64,000 nucleotides of DNA, taken from a virus (lineage: Duplodnaviria; Caudoviricetes). Shown here in pieces: positions 33,129 through 63,505 of the stretch (its first letter is position 1; each line of letters opens with the position of its first letter). The DNA lies in the IMG/VR virus record IMGVR_UViG_3300006153_000386, positions 32,438-96,437 of that record; one strand, given 5' to 3'. The notes under the pieces were generated by a model, which saw only the letters and a list, made by a program, of their open reading frames with translations, ran no database searches and had not been told where the DNA came from. Both the position numbers and the translations under genes were made by a program.

Positions 33129-33350
33129 ATGAGAATGGATAGAATTACTATATCAAGATATAAAGGTTCTAATATGGACAAAGAAATGATTCAAATTTGT
33201 ATTCAGCCTGGATGTTTTAAAGGATTGGGGCCGATGCCGATTTATGAAGGTATTATGGAACTGCAAGAATTTGCAAAATGTATCACTAATTTAAGTCAGT
33301 GTGAAATTAAAACACAAAAAATAAGAGAAATACCAATAGAAAGCCAATGA
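33129..33350 (+). CDS. Hypothetical protein
   Basis: ORF; stop codon lies inside a palindromic junction site. Confidence 0.55.
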   Translation: MRMDRITISRYKGSNMDKEMIQICIQPGCFKGLGPMPIYEGIMELQEFAKCITNLSQCEIKTQKIREIPIESQ

Positions 33351-33380
33351 AATAATGATTTTAAGTGGAGGAAAAATGTT

Positions 33381-33731
33381 ATGACACTTATTGAATTGAA
33401 TGAAACTATTTTTGCTTTGGAAAAACAAATTGAAATGCTTAATGTTCAGATGATTGGAATTTGTGATAATAGGGACATGAAAATATCTGTAATGCCTAAA
33501 GAATATTATGGATTATTAAAAGAAAGACAGTGTATAGAAGCTGAATTAAGACCACTTTGGAACGAACAAAGCAGATTGAGACGTGAAATGCAAAAAAATA
33601 GTACACGTACACAAAAGAAAACATTTGTAAATTCCTATGGAGAAGCCACAAAAAGAGAAATTACAAATGTAACATACCAGAGAGCACAAAAAAGAATGGA
33701 AAAATCATTATTGGTATTTGTTGGAAAGTGA
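33381..33731 (+). CDS. Hypothetical protein
   Basis: RBS GGAGG; flanked by junction sites. Confidence 0.65.
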   Translation: MTLIELNETIFALEKQIEMLNVQMIGICDNRDMKISVMPKEYYGLLKERQCIEAELRPLWNEQSRLRREMQKNSTRTQKKTFVNSYGEATKREITNVTYQRAQKRMEKSLLVFVGK

Positions 33732-33784
33732 ATTAAACGGCAATGAAATCGGAATTTCATCCAGAGAAGGAGGCAATATAATAT

Positions 33785-34048
33785 ATGACAATAGATAGAG
33801 AACATAGATGTATTTATGAATGTAATATAGGAATTAAGTGTGAATGCAATGATTGTAGTATTTGTCAATATAATCCAAAAAAAACAACACTTAAACAGTA
33901 TTATGCATCAGGAATGACGTTAATTGAAGGCAGATGGCAAAGTTGTGGTTGGACAATCGAAGCTAATTCATTTGTTGAGGCTGCTAAAATTGCGGAAGCA
34001 GATGAAAAATTTAGAATACATTCGTTAAGCGATAATGTAATGTATTAG
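33785..34048 (+). CDS. Hypothetical Cys-rich protein
   Basis: RBS AAGGAGG; flanked by junction sites. Confidence 0.6.
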   Translation: MTIDREHRCIYECNIGIKCECNDCSICQYNPKKTTLKQYYASGMTLIEGRWQSCGWTIEANSFVEAAKIAEADEKFRIHSLSDNVMY

Positions 34049-34078
34049 TATTTGAAACTCGTATTTTAACTTGGTAGA

Positions 34079-34381
34079 TTGGAGGAAATGGTTATGAAGA
34101 TTACAGAAGATATGGTAACAGTTTTTAATCAAACTTTGGAAAATTTGAATTGCAGTTTCAGATTAAAGTTTGAAAGTGGAATGTGTGGGAATGGACAGTG
34201 TAAAGTTGTTCCATCCAATGATATGTTTATTCATAGTTCAATCATTAATCTTACAGAAGAATTTTACAAAGTTTTGGAAGACTTCTTTAGCAAAAGAGAT
34301 ATAGAGTTGTCTTATAATAATGACGGTTCAATATTTTGGAGCAAAGATGGTTGGAAAGATATTGTGGAAAAAATGCAATGA
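34079..34381 (+). CDS. Hypothetical protein
   Basis: RBS GGAGG; flanked by junction sites. Confidence 0.6.
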   Translation: MEEMVMKITEDMVTVFNQTLENLNCSFRLKFESGMCGNGQCKVVPSNDMFIHSSIINLTEEFYKVLEDFFSKRDIELSYNNDGSIFWSKDGWKDIVEKMQ

Positions 34382-34415
34382 ATTTCGCATTTCAAGGAAG
34401 AAATGAGGTGAAGAT

Positions 34416-34730
34416 ATGGCAAAAATAGATGTTATCAATAATAAAATGGCAATGTTTATGGTGTGTGAAGCAATAGGACAAGATAGGGATGTAATAGATA
34501 TCCAAGCAGATGAAAATGGATTATATGATGTGAAAATTCTGTTCAATGATCAAGAGTTAAATGTAGAAAGATTCATTGAAAATTTACAGAGAAATTATCA
34601 AGAAGCAGTTAAAAAGCAAGCTGCTGATTTGCTGAGTGTAGAGTATGATAAGATGCTTGGCAAAATTTATGAGATACAAGAGGCGTTAGAACATCATAAT
34701 AAGATTTTTGAAGAAAAAGTTTATGGTTAG
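34416..34730 (+). CDS. Hypothetical protein
   Basis: RBS GAGGTG. Confidence 0.6.
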   Translation: MAKIDVINNKMAMFMVCEAIGQDRDVIDIQADENGLYDVKILFNDQELNVERFIENLQRNYQEAVKKQAADLLSVEYDKMLGKIYEIQEALEHHNKIFEEKVYG

Positions 34731-34747
34731 TAGAGGGTGGTGAAAAA

Positions 34748-35479
34748 TTGAACAATATAAATTCAAGAGTGGGAGAAATTGAAAATAATCGTTTTGGAAC
34801 TGAAATGAAAATTGTTAAGTATGATGGTTATAATGATGTAATTGTTGAATTTCAGGATGAGCATCATTATAGATTACATACAACATATACCAATTTCAAA
34901 CGCCACCAAGCATTAAATCCGTATGACAGATCAGTATTTGGAGTAGGATATTTAGGAGAAGGCAACCATAGTACAGGTACTTCAAAGAAAAGAACACAAG
35001 AGCATAGAGTATGGAGAGGTATGTTGGAACGCTGCTATTCTGAAAAATATAAAGAAGATAATAAATCCTACTATGGCATTGCTACAGTATGCGATGAATG
35101 GAAGTGTTTTCAGAAATTTGCAGAATGGTATAACAACAATAAATATGAAGTAGATGGAAGACTGCATTTGGATAAGGATATATTATATCCAGAAAACAAA
35201 ATATATTCTCCGCAAACGTGTTTGCTGGTTCCACAGAGAATAAATATGTTATTCATGACAAGACCTAATAAAAGTGGATTACCTAATGGTGTTAGGAAAG
35301 AAAGTAAAGGAACATTTTCGGCAGTCTATAATGGAAAAAATCTTGGTAAGTTTGATTCTATAAAAGATGCTGAAACGGCACATTATAAAGCCAAATTGGA
35401 AGCTATAAAACAAGTTGCGGAAGAGTACAAAGAAATTATACCTCAAAAAGTATATGATGCTTTGATAAATTGGTCTTAA
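34748..35479 (+). CDS. AP2/HNH-type homing-endonuclease-like protein
   Basis: WRGMLERCY...VCDEW...RLHLDKDI...YSPQTC; paralog of 15555..16316. Confidence 0.7.
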   Translation: MNNINSRVGEIENNRFGTEMKIVKYDGYNDVIVEFQDEHHYRLHTTYTNFKRHQALNPYDRSVFGVGYLGEGNHSTGTSKKRTQEHRVWRGMLERCYSEKYKEDNKSYYGIATVCDEWKCFQKFAEWYNNNKYEVDGRLHLDKDILYPENKIYSPQTCLLVPQRINMLFMTRPNKSGLPNGVRKESKGTFSAVYNGKNLGKFDSIKDAETAHYKAKLEAIKQVAEEYKEIIPQKVYDALINWS

Positions 35480-35580
35480 AATGTACCTTTCCAGTCCTTT
35501 TAATTGGACACAAACAATAGTATAATGGAAACATAAAAAACAGAGTTAAAGTCCTACACAGTAGGCAGAAAGGAAAATAT

Positions 35581-35784
35581 ATGGAAACTTTAATTGGATT
35601 GGCTGTTATCTTTTGTGTATGCTTTTTACCTGGAATCATTACGAATGTTAAATTTGACAATCGGATGCCACCAGCAGGATATAAAACAGATTACGGTGCA
35701 ATGAGCCATGATTTAGCAATGGGAAAATCTAAGAATGAAGTGATGAGTAAAGCTAATCGAGGCGGTTATGATATTAAAAAGTGA
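35581..35784 (+). CDS. Small membrane protein with own promoter and terminator
   Basis: N-terminal TM helix; TATAAT at 35521; hairpin AGCCACTGG...CTGGTGGCT plus T-run. Confidence 0.6.
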   Translation: METLIGLAVIFCVCFLPGIITNVKFDNRMPPAGYKTDYGAMSHDLAMGKSKNEVMSKANRGGYDIKK

Positions 35785-35850
35785 ATATAGGGATGAGTAA
35801 AGCCACTGGAAAATAATCTGGTGGCTTTTATGATGAAGAAATGATATAAT

Positions 35851-36072
35851 ATGGAGGACATAAGTATGAGTGATGATTTTAAAGTGATTTCTGAATTTTG
35901 TTGTCACGGGAAACAGATGGTGGCTGTCAGAATTGGAAATGCTGCACATGTGATGAGTTTAGAGGAATGGCATAAGGTTTATGGTAGGAACCATCAGGAG
36001 AAGTGGAAAACCAAGGTTGATTGGAATAGATTTAGTCCGCAAATTGAATATAATAAGAAAGATGTATCTTAA
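35851..36072 (+). CDS. Hypothetical protein
   Basis: RBS GGAGG. Confidence 0.55.
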   Translation: MEDISMSDDFKVISEFCCHGKQMVAVRIGNAAHVMSLEEWHKVYGRNHQEKWKTKVDWNRFSPQIEYNKKDVS

Positions 36073-36086
36073 AATGGGAGGATTTT

Positions 36087-36716
36087 ATGCTTACAAGGCA
36101 GCAAAATATTTTTTTGGCAAAAAAAACATTTACAGAACTTGTATTTAATACCGCATATATAGAAGGGTGTAATGTGACTTTTCCACAAACACAGACTATT
36201 ATTGATGGGGCTGTGGTAAGTGGCATATCTGTGGATGATATACAAACAGTTTTAAACTTGCGTGATGGATGGAAATTTGTCATAAATTCAGTGGATACGA
36301 CTTTAACGTTGGAATATATTTGTAAGATAAACGAGTATGTATCAAGAAATGAAAGTCTTGAATGGGGAGTGTTAAGAAAAGGAACTGTAGGAGTTGGTGA
36401 TTTTGTACCGAGTATTCCGATTAAAGAGAATGTTCTAAAAGAAATTGAACGGATAAAGGGGATAAATAATCCTATTGATAAAGCGTTAGAATATTTTGCA
36501 TATGCTTGTAAGCAACAGTTATTTTGGGATGGAAACAAGAGAACTTCTACAATGGTAGCCAGTAAAATATTAATAGAAAATGGCGAGGGCATCTTGACAA
36601 TTGGAAAAGATAATGCAGAAGAATTTAATGTAACCCTAAATAATTGGTATTTAAAAAATGAATTGCAACCATTAAAGGATTGTTTAAGAAAATGTATTAG
36701 AACGTTGGAGATATAG
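36087..36716 (+). CDS. Fic/Doc family protein with non-canonical motif
   Basis: QLFWDGNKRTS in place of HPFxDGNGRxxR. Confidence 0.8.
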   Translation: MLTRQQNIFLAKKTFTELVFNTAYIEGCNVTFPQTQTIIDGAVVSGISVDDIQTVLNLRDGWKFVINSVDTTLTLEYICKINEYVSRNESLEWGVLRKGTVGVGDFVPSIPIKENVLKEIERIKGINNPIDKALEYFAYACKQQLFWDGNKRTSTMVASKILIENGEGILTIGKDNAEEFNVTLNNWYLKNELQPLKDCLRKCIRTLEI

Positions 36717-36755
36717 TTAAAAGGATTATTTCATGGTGTGATTGGAGGATGAGAT

Positions 36756-37043: not shown

Positions 37044-37077
37044 GTCTTGAAATGATTGTTTTATTGGGAGGTAGTTT

Positions 37078-37925: not shown

Positions 37926-38261
37926 TTGAGTGATTTATTATCATATAAAAATTACAACGGTACAGTAGAATATTCAAAAGAGGATAGCTGCCTTTTTGGA
38001 AAGGTGGTTGGAATAAAATCTTTATTGTCTTATGAAGGTGGTTCTGTACAGGAGTTAGAGCAGGATTTTCAGAATGTGATTGACGAATATTTGGCTGATT
38101 GTAAAGAGCGGAGTGTGGAGCCTGAACAACCATACAAGGGTACATTCAATGTTAGGATCAGTCCAGAGCTTCATCGAAACATCGCTGTATATGCTATTGA
38201 GCATGGAAAAAGTTTGAATGCTGCTGTTGAAGAAGCTATTGGGAATATGGTTAGAGCATAG
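37926..38261 (+). CDS. hicB: HicB family antitoxin (orphan)
   Basis: LSYKNYNGTVEYS...PYKGTFNVRISPELH...SLN. Confidence 0.85.
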   Translation: MSDLLSYKNYNGTVEYSKEDSCLFGKVVGIKSLLSYEGGSVQELEQDFQNVIDEYLADCKERSVEPEQPYKGTFNVRISPELHRNIAVYAIEHGKSLNAAVEEAIGNMVRA

Positions 38262-38475
38262 GGAGGATTTTTGTATGAATGAATATTTATTTGTTAATGG
38301 GACGTTTGAGGTAAATCGTATTTTTGTAATTAAGGCAGAAACAGAGGAACAGGCATATGATATATTGTGTGAAAAGCAAAATATAACTGGAAGTGATAAA
38401 GAAAATGCAAGAAAGTATCATAAGGGCATTTTGATAGAATATACTAATGGATATTTTGAAACAGATGATTTTTAG
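38218..38475 (+). CDS. Hypothetical protein (likely start about 38275)
   Basis: RBS GGGAGG before MNEYLF. Confidence 0.5.
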   Translation: MLLLKKLLGIWLEHREDFCMNEYLFVNGTFEVNRIFVIKAETEEQAYDILCEKQNITGSDKENARKYHKGILIEYTNGYFETDDF

Positions 38476-38885
38476 ACTTGAAATAATAGTTTTATCTAAG
38501 AAATATGCGTTATCTAAAAGAGAGAATCCCATAAACATATTAATAATTGATTGTAATTGCTTTGCTTCTATAATTATGTTAATATTGAATTATAATATTA
38601 GACTTTAGGAGAAATACATATGAAACTAAAGCAATTAATTCAATTAGAATTAAACGTTTTTTGATAATGCTTGAAAAAATCGGGAATATTGTATATAATA
38701 TAGGTATCAATATGAAGGAAGGTCTTGTATATGAGCGATAGAGAAAGAGTGTATCAGCTTTTAGACGTTGTACCTGATTATAAACTTCCTTATGTTATTG
38801 GTTTCATACAAGGATTATTAATAGTAGATATACCAGAAGTAGTAAATTTCTGCATTGATAAAAATAAGTCGGAGGGAGAGCAAAA

Positions 38886-47313: not shown

Positions 47314-47331
47314 AGCCGATGAAATTGTAAT

Positions 47332-47550
47332 TTGAAGGAAGGGAAATACATGAACACAATACCACGATACATGAAAGAGTATGCCAATGCACAGCGGAAA
47401 AGTTATGTAGATAATGAATTGATGCAGAAAAAGTACAAAGATATGGCACTGGAAACCATAGAGCGTATTTTGAAAAATACAGAACACGGATTAATTACAA
47501 TTAATGAAGGAATGAAAGCGTTGTGTAATCCGCTTGATGGAATTTTGTAG
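47332..47550 (+). CDS. Hypothetical protein
   Basis: ORF after junction site. Confidence 0.5.
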   Translation: MKEGKYMNTIPRYMKEYANAQRKSYVDNELMQKKYKDMALETIERILKNTEHGLITINEGMKALCNPLDGIL

Positions 47551-48040: not shown

Positions 48041-48327
48041 TGATAACATATAGTAGCGGATCTGAAGCCATAGAAACAGTATATACCTATGACGAATGGT
48101 TAAGGGAATATAACCGCCGGGAAACAAAGCGAAGAATCAAACAGAGGGCAGAACGCCTTTATTATATAAAACAACGTTTATCAGGGGTAATAATGGCAAC
48201 TATCGGAATCATAACGCCATTTGTATTGGATGGAGATGCAACAGTGTCATTGTTTGCGCTGCCTTTGGGAATGTTTTTGATGATGACAAAAGAAAAGGTT
48301 ATGACATTTTATAAGTATGTGGCATAA
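48037..48327 (+). CDS. Membrane protein (2 TM)
   Basis: Two hydrophobic C-terminal segments. Confidence 0.6.
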   Translation: MMITYSSGSEAIETVYTYDEWLREYNRRETKRRIKQRAERLYYIKQRLSGVIMATIGIITPFVLDGDATVSLFALPLGMFLMMTKEKVMTFYKYVA

Positions 48328-48498
48328 ATCGTGTATTTCATTGGCTATTGTCCATAGTAAAGGAATACCGCTTATAATGCCGTATTTTAACCATATAGGC
48401 GGTATTTCTCATAGTGTGGATAAAATAGGCAGATACGACTTGAAATTGTGCTAGAATCTGCTATAATTAGTCTATAAGCTAAGAAAGAAGGTATATAT

Positions 48499-50044: not shown

Positions 50045-50311
50045 ATGAAACTACTGTTTTTTTGGATAGAAAGTAAAGGTGATACAATGAAAAATTTTAT
50101 ACAGATTGAAAACAACGGATATACGATTAAAATTAGTTTACAGAATATCCAGTATTCAGATACAGGAGAAATATTAAAAGAAATAATAGATGGTCTTAGC
50201 TGGAATTGGAATAGTTTTTATACTAATGATAAGTTGTGGTATTGTGATGGAAGTAAATACTTAAATTGTGAAGCAGTAAATTATGAAGAAAAAATAATTA
50301 TTTTTGGATAA
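50045..50311 (+). CDS. Hypothetical protein (likely start about 50087)
   Basis: RBS AAGGTG. Confidence 0.5.
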   Translation: MKLLFFWIESKGDTMKNFIQIENNGYTIKISLQNIQYSDTGEILKEIIDGLSWNWNSFYTNDKLWYCDGSKYLNCEAVNYEEKIIIFG

Positions 50312-51591: not shown

Positions 51592-52353
51592 ATGAGTTAT
51601 GAAATCGTATATAATAAGCAGTTTTTAAAGATTGATGGAAAAATTATTCCGTTAACTTTATGCGGAAGTAGCAATGTCTATGAACCGCTTCCAAACGGAA
51701 GACAGAGACGGGAAAGAGAATGGAGTGCAATATACATAGGTGGAAGCAATAGGCAAATAGCAGCTACAGAAACAGAAATCATGAAAGAAATTGAATCATG
51801 TTGTGATGGTGGAGAATATCAGGAACATTTCATGCAAAATGGAAAATGGGTTGATGATAAAGGTTTGATCCGTTTCTTTCAGAGTGGGATAAAAAATGCA
51901 AAAACCATAGAGGAATTAAAAAAGGATTATTTCTTTATGGGTATGTATGGATATTTCAGTATATGGAAAGAAATGGATAACACTATAGAAAATCGTGTTG
52001 AAATAAATTCAAGTGACAATTTGAGGGATTTTTTGGAAGTTGCTCAGAGACGGATTAAGAATAGGACAGAAAAAGAAGGAATTTATATTTGCCTGAAATA
52101 TTACAATGAAAAGTTTGAATTCAGAGTAAAACCAGAAAAGAAAACAAAGGAACAATTGACCGATTATTTTGCTATTAAGATTGGAAATCGAGACAGTTAT
52201 TTAGTCAAATTAACAAGTAGAAGAATAAAACATACTTCACTTTGCAATCTTACAAAGCAATTTAAAACGGAAAGAGAAGCTAATAAATATGTGGAAAAAC
52301 TGATTGAAAGAGGTTTTAAAATTGATTTTACAGTGGAACATATAGTTGTATAG
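51592..52353 (+). CDS. Hypothetical protein
   Basis: RBS GGAGGGG. Confidence 0.65.
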   Translation: MSYEIVYNKQFLKIDGKIIPLTLCGSSNVYEPLPNGRQRREREWSAIYIGGSNRQIAATETEIMKEIESCCDGGEYQEHFMQNGKWVDDKGLIRFFQSGIKNAKTIEELKKDYFFMGMYGYFSIWKEMDNTIENRVEINSSDNLRDFLEVAQRRIKNRTEKEGIYICLKYYNEKFEFRVKPEKKTKEQLTDYFAIKIGNRDSYLVKLTSRRIKHTSLCNLTKQFKTEREANKYVEKLIERGFKIDFTVEHIVV

Positions 52354-52380
52354 AGGCAATGAAAGAATCGTTTCAAGAAT

Positions 52381-53391
52381 ATGTTTAGAAAAATAAATAT
52401 CTACAAAAGTATATTTACTATGATAAATGCATATGATATAATTAAGGGGTGGAAAGGATGTGAAAAAATGAAGATTTCTTACAGTAAACTATTTGGGATA
52501 TTGGAACAAAGGAATATTACAAAAACAGAGTTAAGAGAAAATATAAAAGTTTCTACTGCCACCCTTGCAAAATTATCAAAAAATGAACCGATAGCTATGA
52601 AAGTGATTGAGGATATTTGTAATTTTCTAAACTGTCAACCGGGAGATATTATGGAGATGGAAAAAGAAGTTGATAAAACTACATTATTGTACCGATTGCA
52701 GGAGGAGAAACAAATTAGATTAAAGGGTGGAATCTATCACCAGACACAAGTAAAACTTGCATATAATTCTAATCATATGGAGGGAAGTAAACTCACAGAG
52801 GATCAGACAAGATATATTTATGAAACAAATACTATAGGATTAGAGAAAGAGCCTGCTAATATAGATGATATTATAGAAACAGTAAACCATTTTCAGTGCT
52901 TTGATTATATTTTAGACTGTGCAGAAGATGTATTAACTGAAAATGTAATAAAGAAAATTCATCAGATATTGAAATCTAATACATCAGATAGCCGTTTGGA
53001 ATGGTTTAATGTTGGAGACTATAAACAACGTTCTAATATGGTAGGTGATTCAAAAACCACTCCACCTAGTAGAGTAAAAAAGGAAATGCAACGATTACTA
53101 TTTGAGTATCAACAGAAGGAAACTGTTACTTTTGAGGATATTGTAGAATTTCATTATCATTTTGAAAAAATACATCCGTTTCAGGATGGTAATGGCAGAG
53201 TAGGACGTTTAATAATATTTAAAGAATGTTTGAAATATAGCATAATTCCATTCATTGTTGATGAACGGCATAAACTTTATTATTACAGAGGATTAAAAGA
53301 GTTTGAGAATGAGCGTGGATATTTGATAGATACTTGTTTATCTGCACAGGATATGTATATTGAATTACTCAAGTATTTTACAGAAGAATAA
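52381..53391 (+). CDS. XRE-HTH plus Fic domain protein (likely start 52468)
   Basis: HTH ...CQPGDIME; Fic HPFQDGNGRVGR. Confidence 0.9.
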   Translation: MFRKINIYKSIFTMINAYDIIKGWKGCEKMKISYSKLFGILEQRNITKTELRENIKVSTATLAKLSKNEPIAMKVIEDICNFLNCQPGDIMEMEKEVDKTTLLYRLQEEKQIRLKGGIYHQTQVKLAYNSNHMEGSKLTEDQTRYIYETNTIGLEKEPANIDDIIETVNHFQCFDYILDCAEDVLTENVIKKIHQILKSNTSDSRLEWFNVGDYKQRSNMVGDSKTTPPSRVKKEMQRLLFEYQQKETVTFEDIVEFHYHFEKIHPFQDGNGRVGRLIIFKECLKYSIIPFIVDERHKLYYYRGLKEFENERGYLIDTCLSAQDMYIELLKYFTEE

Positions 53392-54808: not shown

Positions 54809-55070
54809 GATTGGCTCTTTTGTGATTTATTTTTGGTCTAACGAAAACAATCCAACAGAACCTATCCATGTCCATGTTTCTGAAGGTAAAGCATCTGCTA
54901 ATTCAACAAAAATATGGATAACTGCAACTGGAAAGACTTTGTTGTGCAATAATAATTCTAAAATTCCAAACAAGATGCTGAAAAATATTATGAGACATAT
55001 CGAAGCCAATGGCGATTTGATTATTGATAAATGGTGTGAACAGTTTGGGGAAATCAGGTATTATTGTTAA
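54792..55070 (+). CDS. DUF4160-type protein
   Basis: MPQIFRIGSFVIYFWSNE..PTEPIHVHV. Confidence 0.75.
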   Translation: MPQIFRIGSFVIYFWSNENNPTEPIHVHVSEGKASANSTKIWITATGKTLLCNNNSKIPNKMLKNIMRHIEANGDLIIDKWCEQFGEIRYYC

Positions 55071-55646
55071 ATGTACTTGAAATCTAAGTTTCAAGTTGTT
55101 CTATATGGAGGATGTAGAATGAAATATTATTTGTTTAATTATGATGATGTAAGTTTGATGTATTGTGATCGTATTGTTCCTAAAGAAGAGATTATATGTG
55201 AATTTGAATTTAATGGATTTACATATTTTTTAAGTGATAAAGAAATCATTAATGTAAGTGCCACTCAACGGAGAAAATGCGTTGAACAATTTTCAAAATG
55301 GATAAGAAAATTTAATTTGAACAGAAAATATATTTTAAGATATAGTAATATTTGGCTATATGAGAGAGACTGTTATGACTTATTATCAGATTATTTAACT
55401 TGGGAAGCAAATAAAAATGGGGAGACTTATGCTGAAGTTATCTGTAAATCGGATGATTTGGAGAAAACTATTAATGAAATAATAAAATCTTTAGCAAAAG
55501 AGCGATTAGATGTACAGAGTAGGGATTTAATTATTGAAATAGAAAAAGGAATGAATGAAGATAAACTTGATGTTGAAAAAATAAGGGAAGAGGTACAGGA
55601 AGTAACCCAAAAAATTTATAATAAAACTTTTGAATGGATTGATTAG
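55071..55646 (+). CDS. Hypothetical protein (likely start about 55119)
   Basis: RBS GGAGG; flanked by junction sites. Confidence 0.6.
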   Translation: MYLKSKFQVVLYGGCRMKYYLFNYDDVSLMYCDRIVPKEEIICEFEFNGFTYFLSDKEIINVSATQRRKCVEQFSKWIRKFNLNRKYILRYSNIWLYERDCYDLLSDYLTWEANKNGETYAEVICKSDDLEKTINEIIKSLAKERLDVQSRDLIIEIEKGMNEDKLDVEKIREEVQEVTQKIYNKTFEWID

Positions 55647-55692
55647 GCAATAAAATTAGATATTCAAGTAAGAAGAAGCGATTGTTATTTCT

Positions 55693-56268
55693 ATGAATAT
55701 TGTTTATAATAGAAACAAGAACGGAGGTGTAATGATGGATACATTGAGAAAAGAGGAAATTTATACGATAGATGATATTTATGCGCTACCAGATGGGGAA
55801 CGAGCTGAGTTGATTGATGGAAAAATTTATTATATGGCTCCGCCAAGTAGGACACATCAGCAGTTATTGCTTTCGTTAAGTAGAAAAATCGCAGATTATA
55901 TAGACTCTAACAACGGAGATTGCGAGGTCAATATTGCTCCGTTCGCTGTTTTTTTGAATGAAGATGATACAAATTATTTAGAGCCTGATATTTCAATAAC
56001 TTGTGATTCTTCTAAATTGGATGACAAAGGATGTCATGGTGCTCCAGATTGGATTATTGAAATTGTTTCTCCTGGGAATAAACCCATGGACTATTTTACA
56101 AAGTTGTTTAAATATCGGACAGCAGGTGTCAGAGAGTATTGGATTGTAGATCCCACAAGAGAGATGATCACAGTGTATAGATTTGAAAAAGAAACTATGG
56201 AACAATATTCTTTTGGCGAGGATGTGTCGGCTGGAATTTATGATGATTTTTCAATATGTATTCGGTAA
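55693..56268 (+). CDS. Uma2 family endonuclease
   Basis: ELIDG.IYYMAPP...EPDI...PDWIIEIVSP...GVREYWIVDP. Confidence 0.9.
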   Translation: MNIVYNRNKNGGVMMDTLRKEEIYTIDDIYALPDGERAELIDGKIYYMAPPSRTHQQLLLSLSRKIADYIDSNNGDCEVNIAPFAVFLNEDDTNYLEPDISITCDSSKLDDKGCHGAPDWIIEIVSPGNKPMDYFTKLFKYRTAGVREYWIVDPTREMITVYRFEKETMEQYSFGEDVSAGIYDDFSICIR

Positions 56269-56286
56269 TTTGGATTAGAAAGTTAG

Positions 56287-56493
56287 GTGAGGGTTATGAA
56301 ACGTCAAAAAAGAGAATTTGCATCTGGCGATATTGAAAATTTACCTGGATTCTTAAGGATTGAGGTTTTTGATGGCGAAATATATACTGATGATTGGACT
56401 GTATTAGAGATTGATGAGGATGTATTTAGGATACCAGCAACAGAGAATAGGCGCATTAAATATAAATTATCTATCGTAGAAATTGAAGAATAG
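56287..56493 (+). CDS. Hypothetical protein
   Basis: ORF with AGGTG RBS. Confidence 0.5.
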   Translation: MRVMKRQKREFASGDIENLPGFLRIEVFDGEIYTDDWTVLEIDEDVFRIPATENRRIKYKLSIVEIEE

Positions 56494-56590
56494 ATAAGTG
56501 AATAAGTGGTTGATAATGAAGCATTTGGAAAATAAAAAATCCAGATGCTTTTTATTATATAAAAAATTACATATTTAAGGAGGTTTCAGT

Positions 56591-56920
56591 ATGAGTGCAG
56601 TAGTGGCAATGAACGAGGAAACAAGGAGGATGGAACAATTTAATGACATAGTGGCAAATATCAAGCCACTTATGACTGTTGGAAAAGGAAAGAATCAAAG
56701 AGTAATTACAGTGAGTGCAGTTGTTCCGTTGTCTCTATGCTTTGTGGACGCCAGATATCAAGGGATGAGGACACATAAACATTTAAACAGATTGAGAAAC
56801 AAATGGGATGAGAGGAAACTAACACCGATAATTCTTGTATGGCATCTGGATGAACATAGATTGGTTTATCAGGTGGAAGGAAACAATTTAATAGTATTTG
56901 CTTGTAGATATCATTATTGA
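56591..56920 (+). pseudogene. Chimeric ORF: phage-protein N-terminus fused to YoeB/Txe toxin C-terminus
   Basis: ...VDARYQGMR...PIILVWH then DEHRLVYQVEGNNLIVFACRYHY. Confidence 0.6.
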
Positions 56921-57026
56921 TAATTTGGAGTGGTTTGAGAAGCATTGGCGGAAATCGTTAGTGCTTTTTCTTTTTGAATGTAGAAATATAGTATAAAGGA
57001 AATTTTTTGAAAGAGAGGATTAAGAT

Positions 57027-57887
57027 ATGGGAAACAAGACTAAACAAACAGGTAAGACAGAAGTTTATCCGTTTTGGTATATGGAAGATATCAAAAATAT
57101 GATGGATTATTTTAAGATGAAGGGGCAGTGGCACTGGTATTTAGTGTTTAATTTCGGGTTGCTTCTTGGAAGACGTATAAGCGATACACTTTATTTGAAA
57201 TGGTCTGATTTTTATTATGAGAATGGAAGAATGAAGGATGAAACAGATATTGTTGAATGGAAAACAGGAAAGACTGTTAGATTGTATATTTGTCCAGCTT
57301 GTCAAGAAGCATTAAAACTATATATTGACAAAACAGGTGTTGACCCAATGAAAAATTATAATGGTTTTGTTTATGGAACAGCTCAAATGTCACAGTTATT
57401 AGAAAATAAAGAAGAGTATCCTGAAGAAGATTGGAAGGAACTAATGATGAAAGCAATACAAAGTCATGCTGCAGCATTTAGAAAACAGTTTAAGTTAGCG
57501 GCAGATGCCTGTAATATACAATATGCGACTTCGACTCATAGTCTTAGGAAAAATTTTGGATACTGGTCAGTTAAACTTCATCCATATGATGTGACAACTG
57601 TAGACAAATTGCAAGGGATATTTTCACATTCTGATCGCAATACAACTCTTCACTATATCGGAATTTCAAGAGAAGATGAAAAGAAATTATATTGTGATAT
57701 GGGAGATTTTATCACTGATATTTCTAACGGGAAGAAGCCAGTAATAAAAAATAGTCCTGTAATTCCACTCAAAGCAGAAGATTTTCGAGAGATTCTTAGT
57801 AAGTGTTGGGATATGGCACAGAATGGCGAAGATAAATTTGACGGGATTAATAATCTGATTGGTATGGCAGAGAAGTGTATGGTATAA
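57027..57887 (+). CDS. Tyrosine recombinase, catalytic-domain-only type
   Basis: GRRISD (R), KTGK (K), HSLRK, FSHS (H), TLHY (Y). Confidence 0.9.
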   Translation: MGNKTKQTGKTEVYPFWYMEDIKNMMDYFKMKGQWHWYLVFNFGLLLGRRISDTLYLKWSDFYYENGRMKDETDIVEWKTGKTVRLYICPACQEALKLYIDKTGVDPMKNYNGFVYGTAQMSQLLENKEEYPEEDWKELMMKAIQSHAAAFRKQFKLAADACNIQYATSTHSLRKNFGYWSVKLHPYDVTTVDKLQGIFSHSDRNTTLHYIGISREDEKKLYCDMGDFITDISNGKKPVIKNSPVIPLKAEDFREILSKCWDMAQNGEDKFDGINNLIGMAEKCMV

Positions 57888-57912
57888 TGATAATCATGGG
57901 AGAGAAGTATAG

Positions 57913-58143
57913 ATGAACCTTGCAACATATCAAACAACACCAGAAAAGCATGGAGAGGGAACCTTTTTCTTTACAGATTGTGGACATAATATGTATTCTA
58001 TAAGAGATAGTATGGCATATCATGGTTGCTTGTGTCCTGGCTGTTTTTATAAAGGAATATATACAACATTGTACATTAGAGGTTCAGAAGAAGTAAATAA
58101 GTACTGGAATGAGAAACAGAAGAAAATGGAAATGAATGATTGA
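57913..58143 (+). CDS. Small Cys-containing protein
   Basis: CGH...CPGC. Confidence 0.55.
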   Translation: MNLATYQTTPEKHGEGTFFFTDCGHNMYSIRDSMAYHGCLCPGCFYKGIYTTLYIRGSEEVNKYWNEKQKKMEMND

Positions 58144-58225
58144 TTTCATTGTGTAAAATTTGTGTATAAACATATTGACTGTTGTGTAATTAGTGTGTAT
58201 AATGAAGCTATGGGGAGGTACACTA

Positions 58226-58402
58226 ATGAAACAAAGAGATTTGATTAAGAAACTTGAAGCTGGAGGTTTTGTTTTCGATCATCATGGAAGTAATCACGAT
58301 ATCTATAAGTATGAGGAGGACGAATTTAAAACAGTTGAAAGACATAAGGAAATACCAGAGAGGTTAGCAAAGGCAATTTTAAAGAGGCGAGGACTAAAAT
58401 AA
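58226..58402 (+). CDS. hicA: HicA family toxin
   Basis: MKQRDLIKKLE.GGF...GSNHDIY...RHKEI.E.LAKAILK. Confidence 0.85.
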   Translation: MKQRDLIKKLEAGGFVFDHHGSNHDIYKYEEDEFKTVERHKEIPERLAKAILKRRGLK

Positions 58403-58450
58403 TCATCTGTCTCATTCATATAAGAAATAGATAATAGGAGGGGAAATGAC

Positions 58451-58864
58451 ATGCAAGCAGTATATCCGGTTTTGTTTACGAAAACAAAAGATTGTATATT
58501 AGTTGAAGTTCCTGATTTAGAGGTTTTAACTGAAGGAAAAGATATGAAAAATGCTATAGAAATGGCAAGAGATGCAATGGAATTAATGTGTGTTACATTG
58601 GAAGATCATAAAAAGGAAATCCCAGAACCGTCTGATACATTAGATATTACAAAAGGAACTTTTTCAGAAGATGGAGAAACTATTTTATCCTACGTTGATA
58701 TTGATTCGGGAGAATACAGAAGAAAAATAGATACAAAAACTGTTAGGAGAAATGTGGCACTTCCTAGTTGGCTCAATTATGAAGCTGAACATGCTGGAAT
58801 TAATGTTTCAAGAGTGTTACAAGAAGCGTTAATGAATGTGTTGAATGTAAAGAGAAATATATAG
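58451..58864 (+). CDS. hicB: HicB family antitoxin
   Basis: YPVLF...VPDL..LTEG...MARDA...VRRNVALPSWL...INVSRVLQEAL. Confidence 0.9.
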   Translation: MQAVYPVLFTKTKDCILVEVPDLEVLTEGKDMKNAIEMARDAMELMCVTLEDHKKEIPEPSDTLDITKGTFSEDGETILSYVDIDSGEYRRKIDTKTVRRNVALPSWLNYEAEHAGINVSRVLQEALMNVLNVKRNI

Positions 58865-58871
58865 TGTATGA

Positions 58872-59117
58872 TTGGTGGATTGGTTTTGCCAGTCTATCAG
58901 TTGTATTATGGAGAAAAATATAATGCGAGAAGTAATGGAATATGAATTGGAAACAAAGAAGAAGCATTTATCAAAACTTCAAGATTATTTTCGTACATAT
59001 ATAAAGGATATTGATTTACCGAAATATGAAGATAATGCGATAAATGCGTTGCTGGAAATGAAGAAAGTTAAGACAGAGATTGAGCAGTTGGAATATTATT
59101 TGCAGTTGAAAACTTGA
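58872..59117 (+). CDS. Hypothetical protein
   Basis: ORF whose stop lies in junction site 59107. Confidence 0.5.
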   Translation: MVDWFCQSISCIMEKNIMREVMEYELETKKKHLSKLQDYFRTYIKDIDLPKYEDNAINALLEMKKVKTEIEQLEYYLQLKT

Positions 59118-59133
59118 TTTTATCGGAGGGCAT

Positions 59134-59679
59134 ATGGGAAAGTTAGATAAAATAAGTGTGTTTATCAGTCTTGTATTAAGACATAAGCCAGACGCAGCAG
59201 GGATTACTCTTGATGAACATGGATGGGCAAATGTTGAAGAACTTATTGGTGGTATAAATAGCACTGGGCGTAAGATGGATATGAAAATATTAGAAGAAAT
59301 TGTTAGAACTGATTGTAAACAGAGATATAGTTTTAATGAAGACAAGACGCTGATTCGAGCAAATCAGGGGCATAGTGTTCCAGTAGATGTAGAACTGAAA
59401 GAGAAGAAACCACCAGAATTTTTGTATCATGGAACTGCAGATAGATTTATAAAAGCTATTATGGAAGAAGGCTTGAAGCCAATGAGTCGCTTATATGTAC
59501 ATCTTTCAAAGGACATTGAAACTGCAAATAAAGTTGGGAAACGTCATGGAAACCCAGTGATTCTGAAAGTATATAGTGGACAGATGTATCAAGATGGGAT
59601 TAAGTTTTATCTTTCTGAAAATGGTGTTTGGTTAGTGTCAAAAGTCGATGCAAAATATATAGAGCAAATAAATGTCTGA
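59134..59679 (+). CDS. kptA: RNA 2'-phosphotransferase (Tpt1/KptA)
   Basis: LRH, KQRY, IRANQGHS, LYHGT, YVHLS, NGVWL. Confidence 0.95.
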   Translation: MGKLDKISVFISLVLRHKPDAAGITLDEHGWANVEELIGGINSTGRKMDMKILEEIVRTDCKQRYSFNEDKTLIRANQGHSVPVDVELKEKKPPEFLYHGTADRFIKAIMEEGLKPMSRLYVHLSKDIETANKVGKRHGNPVILKVYSGQMYQDGIKFYLSENGVWLVSKVDAKYIEQINV

Positions 59680-59918
59680 TTTCAAAAGAGGTCAAGAATA
59701 ATATGGAAACTATTTTAATGGGAGAACATAATGTTTGGAAGATTTTAAAAAAGGATAGATATACAGAAGAAGGAATTAAGAAAATGGAACAAATTTATGA
59801 TTTCTTATCCGTTATGAAAAATACACTTGGTGATTTGACCATACAAGAATTTTTTAATATGTTGAATGAAAATAACGATGAAGTATTTTTCATTTTATCT
59901 ACTATGGCACGAGAATAA
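59628..59918 (+). CDS. Hypothetical protein (likely start about 59703)
   Basis: ORF after junction site. Confidence 0.45.
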   Translation: MVSVKSRCKIYRANKCLISKEVKNNMETILMGEHNVWKILKKDRYTEEGIKKMEQIYDFLSVMKNTLGDLTIQEFFNMLNENNDEVFFILSTMARE

Positions 59919-60228
59919 TAAAGATGCAAGGTATGGATTTTGTATGAATAAATTGTATAGTTGGGATTTATATGATAAAAGCAAAATTGATTCACGAAGA
60001 CTTGCAACGACAATACATGAAGCATGGATAACTTCTGGATATGTAATTGCTGAAAATATTGATGAAGCAAAAGAAAAGATAGGTATGAGTTTTGATTTGG
60101 CAAATGGAAAATATGTCCTGAACTTTGATTTAGGTGAATCATTTATGAACAAATATTATATACAGGATGATAAGAATTCCGATGTTTTTATAGAAGAATT
60201 TTTATTAGAAGAAGATGAGAAACAGTAA
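59866..60228 (+). CDS. Hypothetical protein (likely start about 59944)
   Basis: ORF in operon. Confidence 0.45.
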   Translation: MKITMKYFSFYLLWHENNKDARYGFCMNKLYSWDLYDKSKIDSRRLATTIHEAWITSGYVIAENIDEAKEKIGMSFDLANGKYVLNFDLGESFMNKYYIQDDKNSDVFIEEFLLEEDEKQ

Positions 60229-60261
60229 CTTGAAATTCGATATTCATTTGGAGGGAAAGAT

Positions 60262-60438
60262 TTGACTAGAGTAGAAGCATTGGATACTGCAAGAGATTTA
60301 CTCATGGACTATTTGGGTGGCAGTCCAGATGCGGATAAGCAGTTTATAGAGGCGTATAATGTATTAACAAGCATGAGAAACAGTATGCAAAAACAGAGTT
60401 TTAAAAATAAGATGAAAAATAATATAAAAGCAACTTGA
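60262..60438 (+). CDS. Hypothetical protein (58 aa, TTG start, not in ORF track)
   Basis: RBS GGAGGG; flanked by sites 60231 and 60436. Confidence 0.55.
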   Translation: MTRVEALDTARDLLMDYLGGSPDADKQFIEAYNVLTSMRNSMQKQSFKNKMKNNIKAT

Positions 60439-60451
60439 AATCCGGTTTTTA

Positions 60452-60646
60452 TTGATATATTTTGGAGGTGTAACAATGACAGAACGAGAAATTTTAAATG
60501 ATATTGAATTTTTGATAGGAAGCTGGTTTTCTGCACTGGAAGATGAAGGTTGTGATCCTTGGGAAGATGAGGTATGTATGAGTATGGCAAACAAATATGA
60601 ATATACAAGGGAAGATTATCAGAAATATTGTAGTAAAATTTATTGA
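60452..60646 (+). CDS. Hypothetical protein
   Basis: RBS GGAGGTG; flanked by junction sites. Confidence 0.55.
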   Translation: MIYFGGVTMTEREILNDIEFLIGSWFSALEDEGCDPWEDEVCMSMANKYEYTREDYQKYCSKIY

Positions 60647-60686
60647 TAATTTAGCAATAAAATGTTGCTTTTAAGAGGAAAACGAT

Positions 60687-60953
60687 ATGAGCAGAAGTTA
60701 TAAGAGGGTTCCATGTTGTAAGGATTATAATCGTGGGATGAAAAAACGTGCAAATAGACATTTGAGGAGGAATTATTTGGATATTCCATCTGGAAGAGCA
60801 TATAAAAAACTGTTTTGCTCCTATGATATTTGTGATTACAGATTTTTGAAAACATTCAGTTCTTATAAAAAGTGGATATCTAAACACATTCATGAAAGAT
60901 GTCTAGATGACGAATTGTATAGAAGATGGTATAAATATTATAAAATGAAATAG
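60687..60953 (+). CDS. Basic hypothetical phage protein
   Basis: MSRSYKRVP...YKKLF.SYDICDY. Confidence 0.6.
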   Translation: MSRSYKRVPCCKDYNRGMKKRANRHLRRNYLDIPSGRAYKKLFCSYDICDYRFLKTFSSYKKWISKHIHERCLDDELYRRWYKYYKMK

Positions 60954-61012
60954 ATGAAATCTATTATACAACATAAATTCCGAATAATCTTCATATAATA
61001 AAGTGTACATTC

Positions 61013-61492
61013 TTGACATTGTGTACACTTTTTGCTATGATGGAGGTATCGAAGGAGATGATAGATATGTTGATGGAACAGGCTACTACTGTACGAAAAG
61101 AATGGAGTGCAGTTTGTGATAGTGTTATTCATGAAAAACCTAAATTTATCAAGCGCACGCGAGATAAAATGTGGTTTTCAAATTTGGAAACAATATCTGA
61201 GATTTTAGAAGCATATTATTTTACTGCCACGAAATATATTGAAGGCGATAATTCTGTTACTTTATCGCTTAATGAAATTGATCTTGTAGAGAATGGTAAA
61301 GATGAGAAGGAAGCACGTTTGAATATGGGCATGGCTATATTAGAATATGCTTTGGATTATTATAATGAATATGAAATGTATTCACATAGTCCCAGTAGAA
61401 AGAAACATATCCCTTATATTTTTAAAGCATTGATTATAGATAATCCGGAAAAGATAGGAGATATGTTACAATGCCAAGATGGAAAGAACTAA
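61013..61492 (+). CDS. Putative antitoxin upstream of HicA-like toxin
   Basis: ATTVRKEWS N-terminus; overlaps the HicA-like gene. Confidence 0.6.
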   Translation: MTLCTLFAMMEVSKEMIDMLMEQATTVRKEWSAVCDSVIHEKPKFIKRTRDKMWFSNLETISEILEAYYFTATKYIEGDNSVTLSLNEIDLVENGKDEKEARLNMGMAILEYALDYYNEYEMYSHSPSRKKHIPYIFKALIIDNPEKIGDMLQCQDGKN

Positions 61493-61689
61493 AGAGATTT
61501 TGCGATAGAGATGGATGGGAACTGTATAAAGATACGGATCATTATTTCTATCGAAAAATAGATGATGATGGAAATATCAAATTGACGAAAGTTTCAAAAG
61601 GTTCAGGAGAAATTCGTCCTCATATGTGGAGGGAAATATTAAAGAAGCAGTTACAAGTTACACAAGAATATTTTAACAGTAAAATATGA
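61471..61689 (+). CDS. HicA-like toxin
   Basis: MPRWKELKRFCDRDGW...DHYFY...ILKKQL. Confidence 0.7.
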   Translation: MPRWKELKRFCDRDGWELYKDTDHYFYRKIDDDGNIKLTKVSKGSGEIRPHMWREILKKQLQVTQEYFNSKI

Positions 61690-61782
61690 AAACAAGCATA
61701 AGGCATTTGGAGAATAGTTATCCAGATGCTTTAAAAATATTGTGCGTTTTCAAAATGAAATGCTGTTTTTATAGGTGTTAGA

Positions 61783-62406
61783 ATGGATAAAATATTAGAG
61801 AAGTTAGGAATATATGATCTAATGGTACTATTGCTTACCGGAATGATTATATTGCTTATTACTATTAAAATTTTTCCGATTTTTAATTTTCATATTAAAA
61901 TAGATGCTGATGATTCATTACAATTTTTAATAATCAGTTATTTTATTGGAATGGTTTTTCAAGAATTAGGTTCAAAATTTAGTGGAAGAAAATTATTAAA
62001 ACCAGTGTTTAAAGTATCAAATGATTTACATATTTCTTTATCACAAAAAGAAATAGATTTTATTACAAATACCGTTTGTGATAAACTGGATATTGTCTTT
62101 ACGGACGATTCTGTTTCAGAAATATATAATTATTGTAAATCATGTTATATAAAATCAAATAAAACCACAATAGAAATAGATAAGCAACAATCAGTTGGAG
62201 GTATGGCAAGAAGTTTATCAATATATTTTGTTTTGATTTTTTTAATTTCAGTGATAAAGTTTTTAATTTGCATAAATAGTACATATTTTTTTATGCCTAT
62301 CATAAGTTGCTTTATGGCATACATTTTTTATAATAGGTATGTTAGATTCTTTAAAATGAGATATGTGCTTATACTAAGAGCATTTTATTATGAGAATAAC
62401 AGATAA
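61783..62406 (+). CDS. Multi-pass membrane protein
   Basis: Four hydrophobic segments; flanked by junction sites. Confidence 0.65.
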   Translation: MDKILEKLGIYDLMVLLLTGMIILLITIKIFPIFNFHIKIDADDSLQFLIISYFIGMVFQELGSKFSGRKLLKPVFKVSNDLHISLSQKEIDFITNTVCDKLDIVFTDDSVSEIYNYCKSCYIKSNKTTIEIDKQQSVGGMARSLSIYFVLIFLISVIKFLICINSTYFFMPIISCFMAYIFYNRYVRFFKMRYVLILRAFYYENNR

Positions 62407-62470
62407 TAGATCTTTTTATGTGAAAAAGTCAATAAAAGGCTGGATTTATAGATAGGAGTAAAATTGAAAA

Positions 62471-62692
62471 ATGGCTGATTTAAAAGAAAATGTTAAAAGT
62501 GCAATATTAATTCATCCTGGATTAAAAATATTTTGCGAGGGTGAACGTGCTTGTTTAAAATTAGAGAAAGAATTGGTCACAAAAGGGATTAAGGTAAGAA
62601 TAGGGTGTAATGAGTGTAACATGTGGAGTGTGTATATTATATCAGTACCAGATATGGAAGATGTTTTTCCAGATATAATAGACATGAGATGA
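62471..62692 (+). CDS. Hypothetical protein
   Basis: RBS AGGAG; flanked by junction sites. Confidence 0.55.
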   Translation: MADLKENVKSAILIHPGLKIFCEGERACLKLEKELVTKGIKVRIGCNECNMWSVYIISVPDMEDVFPDIIDMR

Positions 62693-62723
62693 AATTCTAG
62701 TTTGATGGATTCGACCAAGAACG

Positions 62724-63467
62724 GTGAGTATTATGAATAAAGGGAAAAAGTTTTTAGATTTTCTTTTGGAAAGATTCAAAATAGAAAGAGAGAAGTTTGA
62801 CAGATCAGGTGTGTATGCATACACGCAGCGTCTGCTTGCCTATAACTCAAATAAGATTGAGGGAAGTACACTTACTGAGGAGCAGACAGCTTCTTTGTTT
62901 GATAATGGAACTTTACCAAAGTCGGACGATTACTATAGAGCAAAGGATGTTGAGGAAATGAATGGTCATTTCCTGATGTTTAATAAAATGTTGGATACGT
63001 TGGATGAAGCATTATCGCAAGATTTGATAAAGCAATTTCATTATGAGTTAAAGTCTGGAGTATTTGAGGATAGGGCTAATGGATATGCAATTGGTGATTA
63101 TAAGCAGCGTCCTAATATGATAGGTATGTATCAAACTGTCAGACCAGAAGATGTTGAGAAAGAGATGGATGTTCTTATGGAATGGTATTTTAGACAGAAA
63201 GCAAATATTTCTGTATTGGCTGAGTTTCATGCAAGATACGAAAGTATTCATCCATTTCAAGATGGGAACGGTAGGACGGGAAGATTGATTCTCTTTAGGG
63301 AGTGCTTGAAGAATGGTGTTGTGCCAGTTGTGATTGAAGATGCAAATAGAAATGAGTATCTGGAGGCATTGAAAGAATATAGAGAAGAAAAAAGTCTGGA
63401 TAAATTGATTACACTTTTTGAAAAAGAGCAGCAGTTTTATTTTGAGAAGTGCAAATATTTTATGTAG
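62724..63467 (+). CDS. Fic family protein
   Basis: YNSNKIEGSTL; HPFQDGNGRTGR. Confidence 0.9.
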   Translation: MSIMNKGKKFLDFLLERFKIEREKFDRSGVYAYTQRLLAYNSNKIEGSTLTEEQTASLFDNGTLPKSDDYYRAKDVEEMNGHFLMFNKMLDTLDEALSQDLIKQFHYELKSGVFEDRANGYAIGDYKQRPNMIGMYQTVRPEDVEKEMDVLMEWYFRQKANISVLAEFHARYESIHPFQDGNGRTGRLILFRECLKNGVVPVVIEDANRNEYLEALKEYREEKSLDKLITLFEKEQQFYFEKCKYFM

Positions 63468-63505
63468 GGTATGAATGTGCAGTTTCATTTTGGAGATAAA
63501 TTATT

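Follow-up and report, generated by a model that had tools for sequence, protein, structure and literature searches.

Position-specific palindromes at the gene junctions of SPbeta-like phages are candidate crossover points for gene exchange

How phage mosaicism stays gene-precise is a long-standing question, and linker sequences of the kind proposed by Botstein have, to our knowledge, rarely been found. The question is raised anew by the last 64 kb of a single virus record of 96,437 bp (IMG/VR record IMGVR_UViG_3300006153_000386; CheckV completeness about 40%). In this stretch of 64,000 nucleotides with about 31% G+C, called the window below, genes lie on the - strand for about the first 28 kb and, after a switch, on the + strand for the remainder. 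The + strand arm is punctuated by a short palindrome, TRAAA-N6-TTTYA, placed at gene junctions, which a first-pass annotation had taken for the recombination site of an integron-like system. We found that in these phages the junctions themselves are conserved, numbered, and shared by large temperate phages of a widespread family, and that it is the cargo between the junctions that turns over.

We first asked whether the palindrome is real. Exact copies of TGAAA-N6-TTTCA number 4 in the window against 0.6 expected, and copies with one mismatch number 34 against 13.1±3.4 expected, a count reached by no shuffle. The spacing is strict: in the + strand arm, TRAAA-N6-TTTYA was found 13 times at spacing 6, 1-3 times at the other spacings from 2 to 10 and 8 times at spacing 11, and in intergenic DNA 16 times at N6 versus 0-5 times at N4, N5, N7 and N8. 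Loose arm thresholds (8/10 and 9/10 positions) gave mostly chance matches in such AT-rich DNA, and the tandem-site list and other results derived from them were discarded. Alignment of 56 junction sites from five genomes gave the consensus W-T-R-A-A-A-Y-N4-R-T-T-T-Y-A-W, symmetric even at its degenerate positions, with conservation limited to positions 0-6 and 11-17. The palindrome at gene junctions, with its exact 6-base spacing, is thus confirmed. The junction sites of the window are as follows (G0 denotes the window phage and G1-G9 the related prophages and contigs compared with it; joints are those in metagenome contigs, and blocks are stretches of homology to relatives).

33348-33363, + strand: TGAAATAATGATTTTA; its TGA is the stop codon of open reading frame (ORF) 33129-33350; the same 16-mer lies in G2 at 149090.
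33744-33759, + strand: spacer TCGGAA, also in G1 between unrelated flanks.
34053-34068, + strand: spacer CTCGTA, also in G1 and G7 between unrelated flanks.
34379-34394, + strand: spacer TTCGCA; its TGA is the upstream stop codon; a G2 homology block stops exactly at the right arm.
36718-36733, + strand: spacer GGATTA; the GGATTA family is found in G1, G5 and G9.
37048-37063, + strand: spacer TGATTG, also in G1, G5 and G7 between unrelated flanks.
38479-38494, + strand: ORF 38218-38475 stops 6 nt before the site; the next ~250 nt are non-coding.
47320-47335, + strand: spacer TTGTAA, after a methyltransferase gene.
48325-48340, + strand: weaker site TAAATCGTGTATTTCA, with 9/10 arm positions; its TAA is a stop codon.
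50046-50061, + strand: spacer CTACTG; no other address departs from the G1 order.
52360-52375, + strand: exact palindrome after ORF 51592-52353; a G7 homology block begins 6 nt past it.
55078-55093, + strand: exact palindrome with 8-bp arms ACTTGAAA/TTTCAAGT; joints at 55096 and 55099.
55651-55666, + strand: TAAAATTAGATATTCA; joint end at 55674.
58133-58148, + strand: TGAATGATTGATTTCA, 27 nt upstream of the -35 element of a strong promoter at 58175; a G1 block stops 3 nt after it; joint at 58134.
59107-59122, + strand: spacer ACTTGA, before kptA; there is a joint at 59106, and 59125 is a loose end.
59669-59684, + strand: spacer GTCTGA, at the end of kptA.
60231-60246, + strand: spacer TTCGAT.
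60436-60451, + strand: spacer TCCGGT; its TGA is a stop codon.
60658-60673, + strand: spacer TGTTGC; contigs of three runs diverge at 60679.
61756-61771, + strand: spacer TGCTGT; joint at 61772 in three runs.
62433-62448, + strand: spacer GGCTGG, also in G1 and G5; joint end at 62430.
62690-62705, + strand: spacer TTCTAG; the TGA serves as a stop codon; 609 other letters are inserted at the joint at 62703.
63472-63487, + strand: site after the Fic gene 62724-63467.
9941-9956, no strand assigned: exact palindrome in the - strand arm, immediately after the stop codon of the gene for the YomM-like recombinase.

These 23 junction sites within 33348-63487, together with the one at 9941, bear out the descriptive part of the first-pass annotation, which had counted about 24 copies, with a spacer unlike in every copy (18/18 are distinct in the window genome). 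The three examples that it quoted were found at 33743, 55075 and 52359, and all eleven genes that it listed as bracketed by sites are indeed so (33381, 33785, 34079/34094, 36756, 55119, kptA at 59134, 60262, 60476, 61783, 62471 and Fic at 62724). Its placement of the sites at stop codons, before the next ribosome-binding site, holds as well: the left arm often supplies the upstream stop codon through its T[GA]A, or that codon precedes the arm by a few bases, and the Shine-Dalgarno sequence follows 0-12 nt past the right arm. In long intergenic regions the site may adjoin either the upstream stop or the downstream start, and it is therefore not tied to translation initiation. None of the strong promoters (48440, 49483, 53493, 58175 and 61013) overlaps a site, and folding and a promoter scan of the window sites revealed no terminator-like hairpin at any of them.

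The spacers carry the main finding, which came from comparison with relatives. Close relatives are IMG/VR contigs of 130-170 kb and prophages of mouse-gut Lachnospiraceae (identities of 90% for Acetatifactor muris, 78-87% for Lachnospiraceae isolates and 75% for Eubacterium plexicaudatum ASF492), and more distant ones, of about 47%, are held by Oscillospiraceae. Megablast of the window against phage records gave no match, nor did a search of IMG/VR with a small cassette protein. Counted against a reversed-pattern control, the motif is enriched in G001 (18/23 versus 3/2) and G003 (32 versus 7), and in de novo searches of G1 and G3 it ranked first among gapped palindromes. There was no enrichment over the reversed pattern in G004 (16 versus 15) or G006 (11 versus 10), and a crude scan with exact 5-mer arms found no other palindrome in G4 and G6.

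We gathered 215 junction sites, with the whole sequences of six relatives. Within each genome the spacers are all distinct, bar one exception among 181. Between genomes, however, identical 6-nt spacers form 69 pairs, versus 8.1±2.9 (maximum 16) in column shuffles. This sharing does not follow from shared genes: neither flanking ORF has a protein-level homologue across the pair in 62 of the 69 cases, and nucleotide identity of same-spacer pairs is at background by -2 and +18. Arm positions 2 and 15 agree in 64% and 57% of these pairs, and the spacer is therefore better kept than the arms. The order of the spacers is kept too. G1 and G9 have 15 in common, all collinear (tau 1.0, p = 1.5e-12), and tau is also 1.0 for G0-G9 (7 spacers), G0-G7 (6), G1-G7 (8) and G1-G5 (6); G0 and G1 share 10 with a tau of 0.87, the CTACTG address being displaced. 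G3 has 31 sites with the same arms and its own spacer set. Judged by sequence comparison, then, the spacers are fixed positional addresses, collinear between related phages.

What lies between two addresses varies. The slot from TCCGGT to TGTTGC measures 206, 961, 1935 and 386 bp in G0, G1, G9 and G7, respectively, with unrelated contents, and kptA occupies the slot from ACTTGA to GTCTGA in G0 and G7, where G1 and G9 have other genes. On the reverse strand of G9, at 28618, two sites (GAATTA and TTCGAT) lie 4 nt apart with no gene between them, which may be an empty slot.

The sites are also where homology ends. BLAST blocks that hold the upstream gene stop at +15 to +23 from the site start, and those that hold the downstream gene begin at -4 to +3. 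The identical 16-mer of 47320 illustrates both cases, as it follows the same methyltransferase gene in G1, with an unlike downstream gene, and precedes the same downstream gene in G9, with an unlike upstream gene. It is these nucleotide-level offsets that are informative, rather than the frequency of block ends at motif versus other junctions (21% versus 9.7%), a difference that is only ~2-fold and confounded by region. Where only one flank of a same-spacer pair is homologous, the arm on the non-homologous side differs in 19/40 and that on the homologous side in 9/40 (p = 0.034); in fully syntenic pairs, arms differ in 5-6/78. Many crossovers therefore fell inside the site, between the spacer and the far arm.

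Metagenomes gave a similar picture for window positions 55000-63500. Twenty runs, mostly from mouse gut, contain half or more of the words sampled from it; the runs that hold it number 22 and represent 16 studies, and slot variants are seen from sample to sample. Contigs of four partial holders have 14 joint ends, of which 8 lie no more than 8 nt from the edge of a site (55096, 55099, 55674, 58134, 59106, 61772, 62430 and 62703), while sites with 8 nt on either side make up 4.5% of the stretch. Contigs of three runs leave the window sequence at 60679, 6 nt past the site at 60658-60673. These joints are contig data whose shorter side is mostly 20-23 nt; they mark the points at which homology stops, and the origin of the variants and any circles lie beyond them.

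The same pattern is present in well-known phages of Bacillus subtilis. SPbeta (NC_001884) has 36 TRAAA-N6-TTTYA sites and phi3T has 34; the form TAAAA-N6-TTTTA occurs in 34 copies in SPbeta, versus 1.8 at other spacings. The two phages share 24 identical spacers against 0.87 expected, again with a tau of 1.0. Synteny is seen on both sides of 9 of these, upstream only at 4, downstream only at 5 and on neither side at 6, so that one or both flanks are non-homologous at 15/24. We found no published description of the palindromes, and an SPbeta review and a comparative-genomics preprint mention neither them nor YomM.

What kind of activity could act at such sites? In heterospecific lox and FRT systems, sites with different spacers do not recombine and sites with the same spacer do, so that the segment between two unlike sites can be swapped in register. 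We favour an explanation of this kind, to which we give a probability of roughly one in two: the sites are position-coded crossover points, at which sites with the same centre are exchanged by a tyrosine recombinase that needs matching 6-bp overlaps. A dimeric protein would bind the two symmetric half-sites (W-T-R-A-A-A) around a centre private to each junction, and exchange would run between same-centre sites of related SPbeta-like prophages. The accessory gene or genes of one slot would thereby be replaced by unrelated DNA with gene order kept. The catalyst would be a phage tyrosine recombinase whose strand exchange requires identical 6-bp overlaps, as in heterospecific lox/FRT. With such an enzyme, centres should differ within a genome, which avoids internal deletions, and yet match between genomes. 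We prefer this explanation because it accounts together for the common arms, the exact spacing, the private centres and their conservation across genomes.

The likeness to Cre and FLP cassette exchange lies in identical inverted arms around a short asymmetric spacer. The lox/FRT arrangement is, however, engineered, with 13-bp arms and an 8-bp spacer in contrast to the 6-7-bp arms and 6-bp spacer seen here, and the phages have dozens of natural sites in fixed order, for which the enzyme is only a candidate. The geometry W-TRAAA-N6-TTTYA-W with its strict 6-bp spacing does agree with the tyrosine-recombinase core site that the first-pass annotation had recognized; compared with simple core sites (lox, FRT, dif), inverted arms around 6-8 bp are present and arms of 11-13 conserved bp are not. 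As for a requirement for overlap identity, spacers are shared 8-fold over chance and breakpoints fall in sites, yet there are homologues behind other spacers and one joint between unlike sites.

Two intact tyrosine recombinases, with catalytic residues kept in both, are encoded in the window, as had been annotated:

9967-11007, - strand: tyrosine recombinase of the YomM family, 346 amino acids (aa), with catalytic R, HxxR, W and Y present.
57027-57887, + strand: tyrosine recombinase, 286 aa, with catalytic residues present.

The first of these had been read as 252 aa and is in fact 346 aa long. Its family is present in G1, G2, G4, G5 and G9; SPbeta YomM is a homologue of this family, whose members give E-values of 3e-19 to 3e-55. 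The second consists of a catalytic domain and a 75-aa C-terminal tail without an N-terminal core-binding domain; its homologues are found in G7 (81% identity), in G4 (35%) and as fragments in G9. In G1, G2, G3 and G5 the syntenic slot holds an unrelated, full-length XerC-like family of 322-334 aa, and for this reason the array-embedded recombinase 57027 looks like variable cargo. Every genome compared has at least two tyrosine recombinase genes, and none has a serine recombinase; tyrosine recombinases with intact catalytic residues are present in each of the relatives. We looked for one recombinase that co-occurs with the arrays and found none among the relatives; phmmer searches of both recombinases against PDB sequences gave nothing useful. 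The YomM-family recombinase 9967-11007 is, we infer, the best candidate enzyme.

Several observations weigh against overlap-matched exchange by such an enzyme. The site arms of Cre, FLP and Xer recombinases, at 11-13 bp, are much longer than the 6-7 bp conserved here. No computed result ties any enzyme to the sites; the array-embedded recombinase comes from different families in different phages, and G4 has both YomM-like and 57027-like genes yet no motif enrichment. About half of the homologous genes lie behind different spacers, and at least one metagenome joint, from 58134 to 59106, links sites with different addresses; exchange is therefore not strictly address-bound. In laboratory hybrids of SPbeta and phi3Ts, 15/16 junctions fell in long homology and one did not (preprint 10.1101/2020.05.06.055103); the coordinates of this non-homologous junction, near yosA, could not be calibrated against the SPbeta site at 116415. 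Finally, sequence outcomes cannot separate site-specific from short-homology recombination. It is only tentatively, though as a real possibility, that we extend the proposal to SPbeta-like phages at large, from Bacillus subtilis to gut Lachnospiraceae, as carriers of a natural, overlap-matched, recombinase-mediated cassette exchange by a conserved YomM-family enzyme.

If exchange does run between like centres, co-resident phages and prophages could trade accessory, defence and counter-defence genes slot by slot, without risking internal deletions and without losing gene order. Were an enzyme to read the 6-bp centres, engineered cassette exchange would have an equivalent in nature, and accessory and defence-related genes a new way to move. 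Since the pattern is found in SPbeta and phi3T, the proposal is directly testable by standard Bacillus subtilis genetics.

The explanation that competes best, a possible one that we hold to be rather doubtful, is that the sites are passive linkers. The palindrome would primarily be bound by a regulatory or architectural protein, as an operator, roadblock or insulator, and relaxed homologous recombination would merely cross in it; RecA or a phage annealing protein would act, as in Botstein's linker idea and the promoter early stem-loops (PeSLs) of T4-type phages, and would require the full 16-18 bp of identity, hence the matching spacers. In its favour, dimeric DNA-binding proteins typically recognize symmetric half-sites, and none of the recombinases varies together with the arrays; SPbeta also has a gene annotated as encoding a Sak4-like annealing protein, and crossovers in 16-18 bp of identity would yield the same sequence outcomes. 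However, degenerate arm positions 2 and 15 (0.64 and 0.57 identical) are less well conserved than the spacer, the reverse of the expectation for an operator whose spacer is free, and the sites do not overlap strong promoters.

Known elements of this kind resemble the palindromes in part. The sites are placed like the stoperators of L5 and Bxb1, in short intergenic regions and often over stop codons (PMC3029335), and like them form a set of 24-34 copies of a short protein-binding site. Stoperators, though, are 13 bp long, asymmetric, oriented with transcription, all alike and bound by the repressor (PMC3029335), whereas the sites described here are symmetric, have private centres and lie at exchange breakpoints, their protein binding being predicted. 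PeSLs are composites of promoter and terminator that recombine by homology and form mini-circles (PMC2839356, PMC4122927). They too are short intergenic repeats that flank small non-essential genes and whose recombination drives modular replacement; the present sites differ in having no promoter, no stable stem-loop and each a private centre.

In SPbeta itself, the master repressor MrpR, a protein with the tyrosine-recombinase fold, gave only 10 peaks in chromatin affinity precipitation sequencing (ChAP-seq), at the SPbeta repeated element, SPBRE (PMC10516654). SPBRE belongs to the same phage lineage and is likewise a repeated intergenic element, and we considered whether the two are the same. 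The ten target regions published for MrpR yielded the motif ACAAAWAATATGTATA, which is unlike the palindrome: SPBRE is asymmetric, 15 bp long and found at about 10 promoters, unlike the 36 palindromes of SPbeta. MrpR therefore does not account for these 36 sites, which counts against the known repressor as the protein of a passive linker. At aimR, the junction palindrome at SPbeta 76171 is followed, about 15 nt further downstream, by an SPBRE.

An integron-like system, in which single cassettes are excised as circles and reinserted at any site with unlike 6-bp overlaps tolerated, we consider improbable. It was the proposal of the first-pass annotation, and one part of it stands, namely that the sites mark points of gene gain, loss and replacement: both the homology blocks of relatives and the metagenome joints end at site edges. 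Single genes are bracketed by sites, tyrosine recombinases are present and one metagenome joint links sites with different spacers, as such a system would have it. The part that finds no support is free capture and shuffling, because free reinsertion would scramble an address order that is perfectly collinear in five genome pairs, and because no attC-like folded site is present. Neither was an attI/IntI platform seen, although only the general PF00589 model was run, with no search aimed at attI; nor were circular junctions seen in metagenome contigs, which cannot show circles reliably. The tolerance of heterologous overlaps by Tn916-type integrases, which had been invoked in support, is likewise at odds with the conserved spacers, which favour spacer-matched exchange.

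An attC site is 57-141 bp long, recombines as a folded single strand and allows reordering next to attI/IntI. Like attC, the palindromes stand at the 3' end of single promoterless genes in arrays; unlike attC, they are 16-18 bp long, show no arm covariation and keep a fixed order. A further comparison is with the pdif modules of Acinetobacter plasmids, whose 28-bp sites have distinct XerC and XerD arms resembling the host dif (PMC6449649). There, as here, many short sites with a 6-bp centre flank adaptive modules in different replicons (PMC6449649), whereas the phage sites are symmetric, short and near-absent from the host chromosome, with ordered, position-specific centres.

Least probable of all is an RNA element, an intercistronic hairpin of the + strand transcript that would act in processing, mRNA stability or translation of the next gene, with breakpoints as a by-product of its junction position: most sites are transcribed in sense just upstream of a Shine-Dalgarno sequence and G-T combinations are common at positions 2/15, but the arms do not covary, folding is weak, the position relative to the upstream stop or downstream start varies in long intergenic regions, and collinear conserved loops between unrelated genes would be left without explanation. 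Indeed, we detected no covariation at any position pair among the 56 sites from five genomes. Positions 2/15 form 21 Watson-Crick pairs versus 23 expected, with the non-pairing A..C combination in 12/56, as independence predicts; positions 6/11 form 16 versus 17 expected, and positions 0/17 are both W, unpaired. Sites of 22 nt have a mean predicted folding energy of -1.35 kcal/mol, and 69% are weaker than -2. The absent covariation and the weak folding argue for a double-stranded DNA site for a two-fold symmetric protein and not for an RNA or single-strand hairpin, and they disfavour the RNA-processing hairpins that had been listed as an alternative; the operator sites listed beside these are a possible reading still.

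Two further candidates were rejected. A promoter for the host or phage RNA polymerase does not fit, as the right arm lies directly against the Shine-Dalgarno sequence, so that a -10 element and leader would not fit between them, and the strong promoters are elsewhere. Nor does a site for a host global regulator (cre, CodY, Rex or CRP-type boxes), for which the spacing is unfit and the motif too nearly confined to the prophage. In the 6.7-Mb genome of ASF492, 12/23 matches to the strict 18-mer fall within the prophage contig, and the 11 in the other 6.5 Mb, versus 4 for the control, are near background; a host regulon is therefore unlikely.

The phage itself, a mouse-gut prophage, has the organization of an SPbeta-like phage: a YonO-type polymerase, a late arm on one strand and an opposite arm of many small early genes. 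The polymerase, a single-subunit RNA polymerase of 947 aa, is encoded in the late arm (16702-19545, - strand). The protein matches the yonO region of SPbeta-type Bacillus phages, as well as genes annotated as 'RNA-dependent RNA polymerase' in phages of Enterocloster and Thomasclavelia. The layout parallels that of SPbeta, including a YomM-like recombinase among the late genes. In G1, the closest large relative, the YonO-like polymerase gene is interrupted by about 1 kb carrying a 236-aa ORF (11842-12884), probably an intron or a homing-endonuclease insertion; yonO of phi3T is likewise annotated in two pieces, phi3T_59 and phi3T_60.

The cargo of the + strand arm consists of small accessory genes, including those for KptA/Tpt1, Uma2, FRG, a methyltransferase and the tyrosine recombinase described above, with host-type promoters and terminators among them. 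Three different Fic-domain proteins occupy separate slots (36087-36716, 52381-53391 and 62724-63467), one of them fused to HTH_26. HicB (37926 and 58451), a PHD-like antitoxin (61013) and a YoeB-like fragment (56591) are present as single cassettes. Within the - strand arm, the + strand gene at 5382-6446 encodes a STAND/NACHT-like NTPase fused to an Mrr-type restriction endonuclease domain, likely a defence gene; four tRNA genes (Pro, Ser, Tyr and Lys) are found near it, at 5229-15163. At 56519-56838, a segment of ~320 bp around a terminator and the start of ORF 56591 is common to G1, G2 and G9, where it is 71-86% identical between unlike neighbours, and several metagenome contigs break at 56519-56567.

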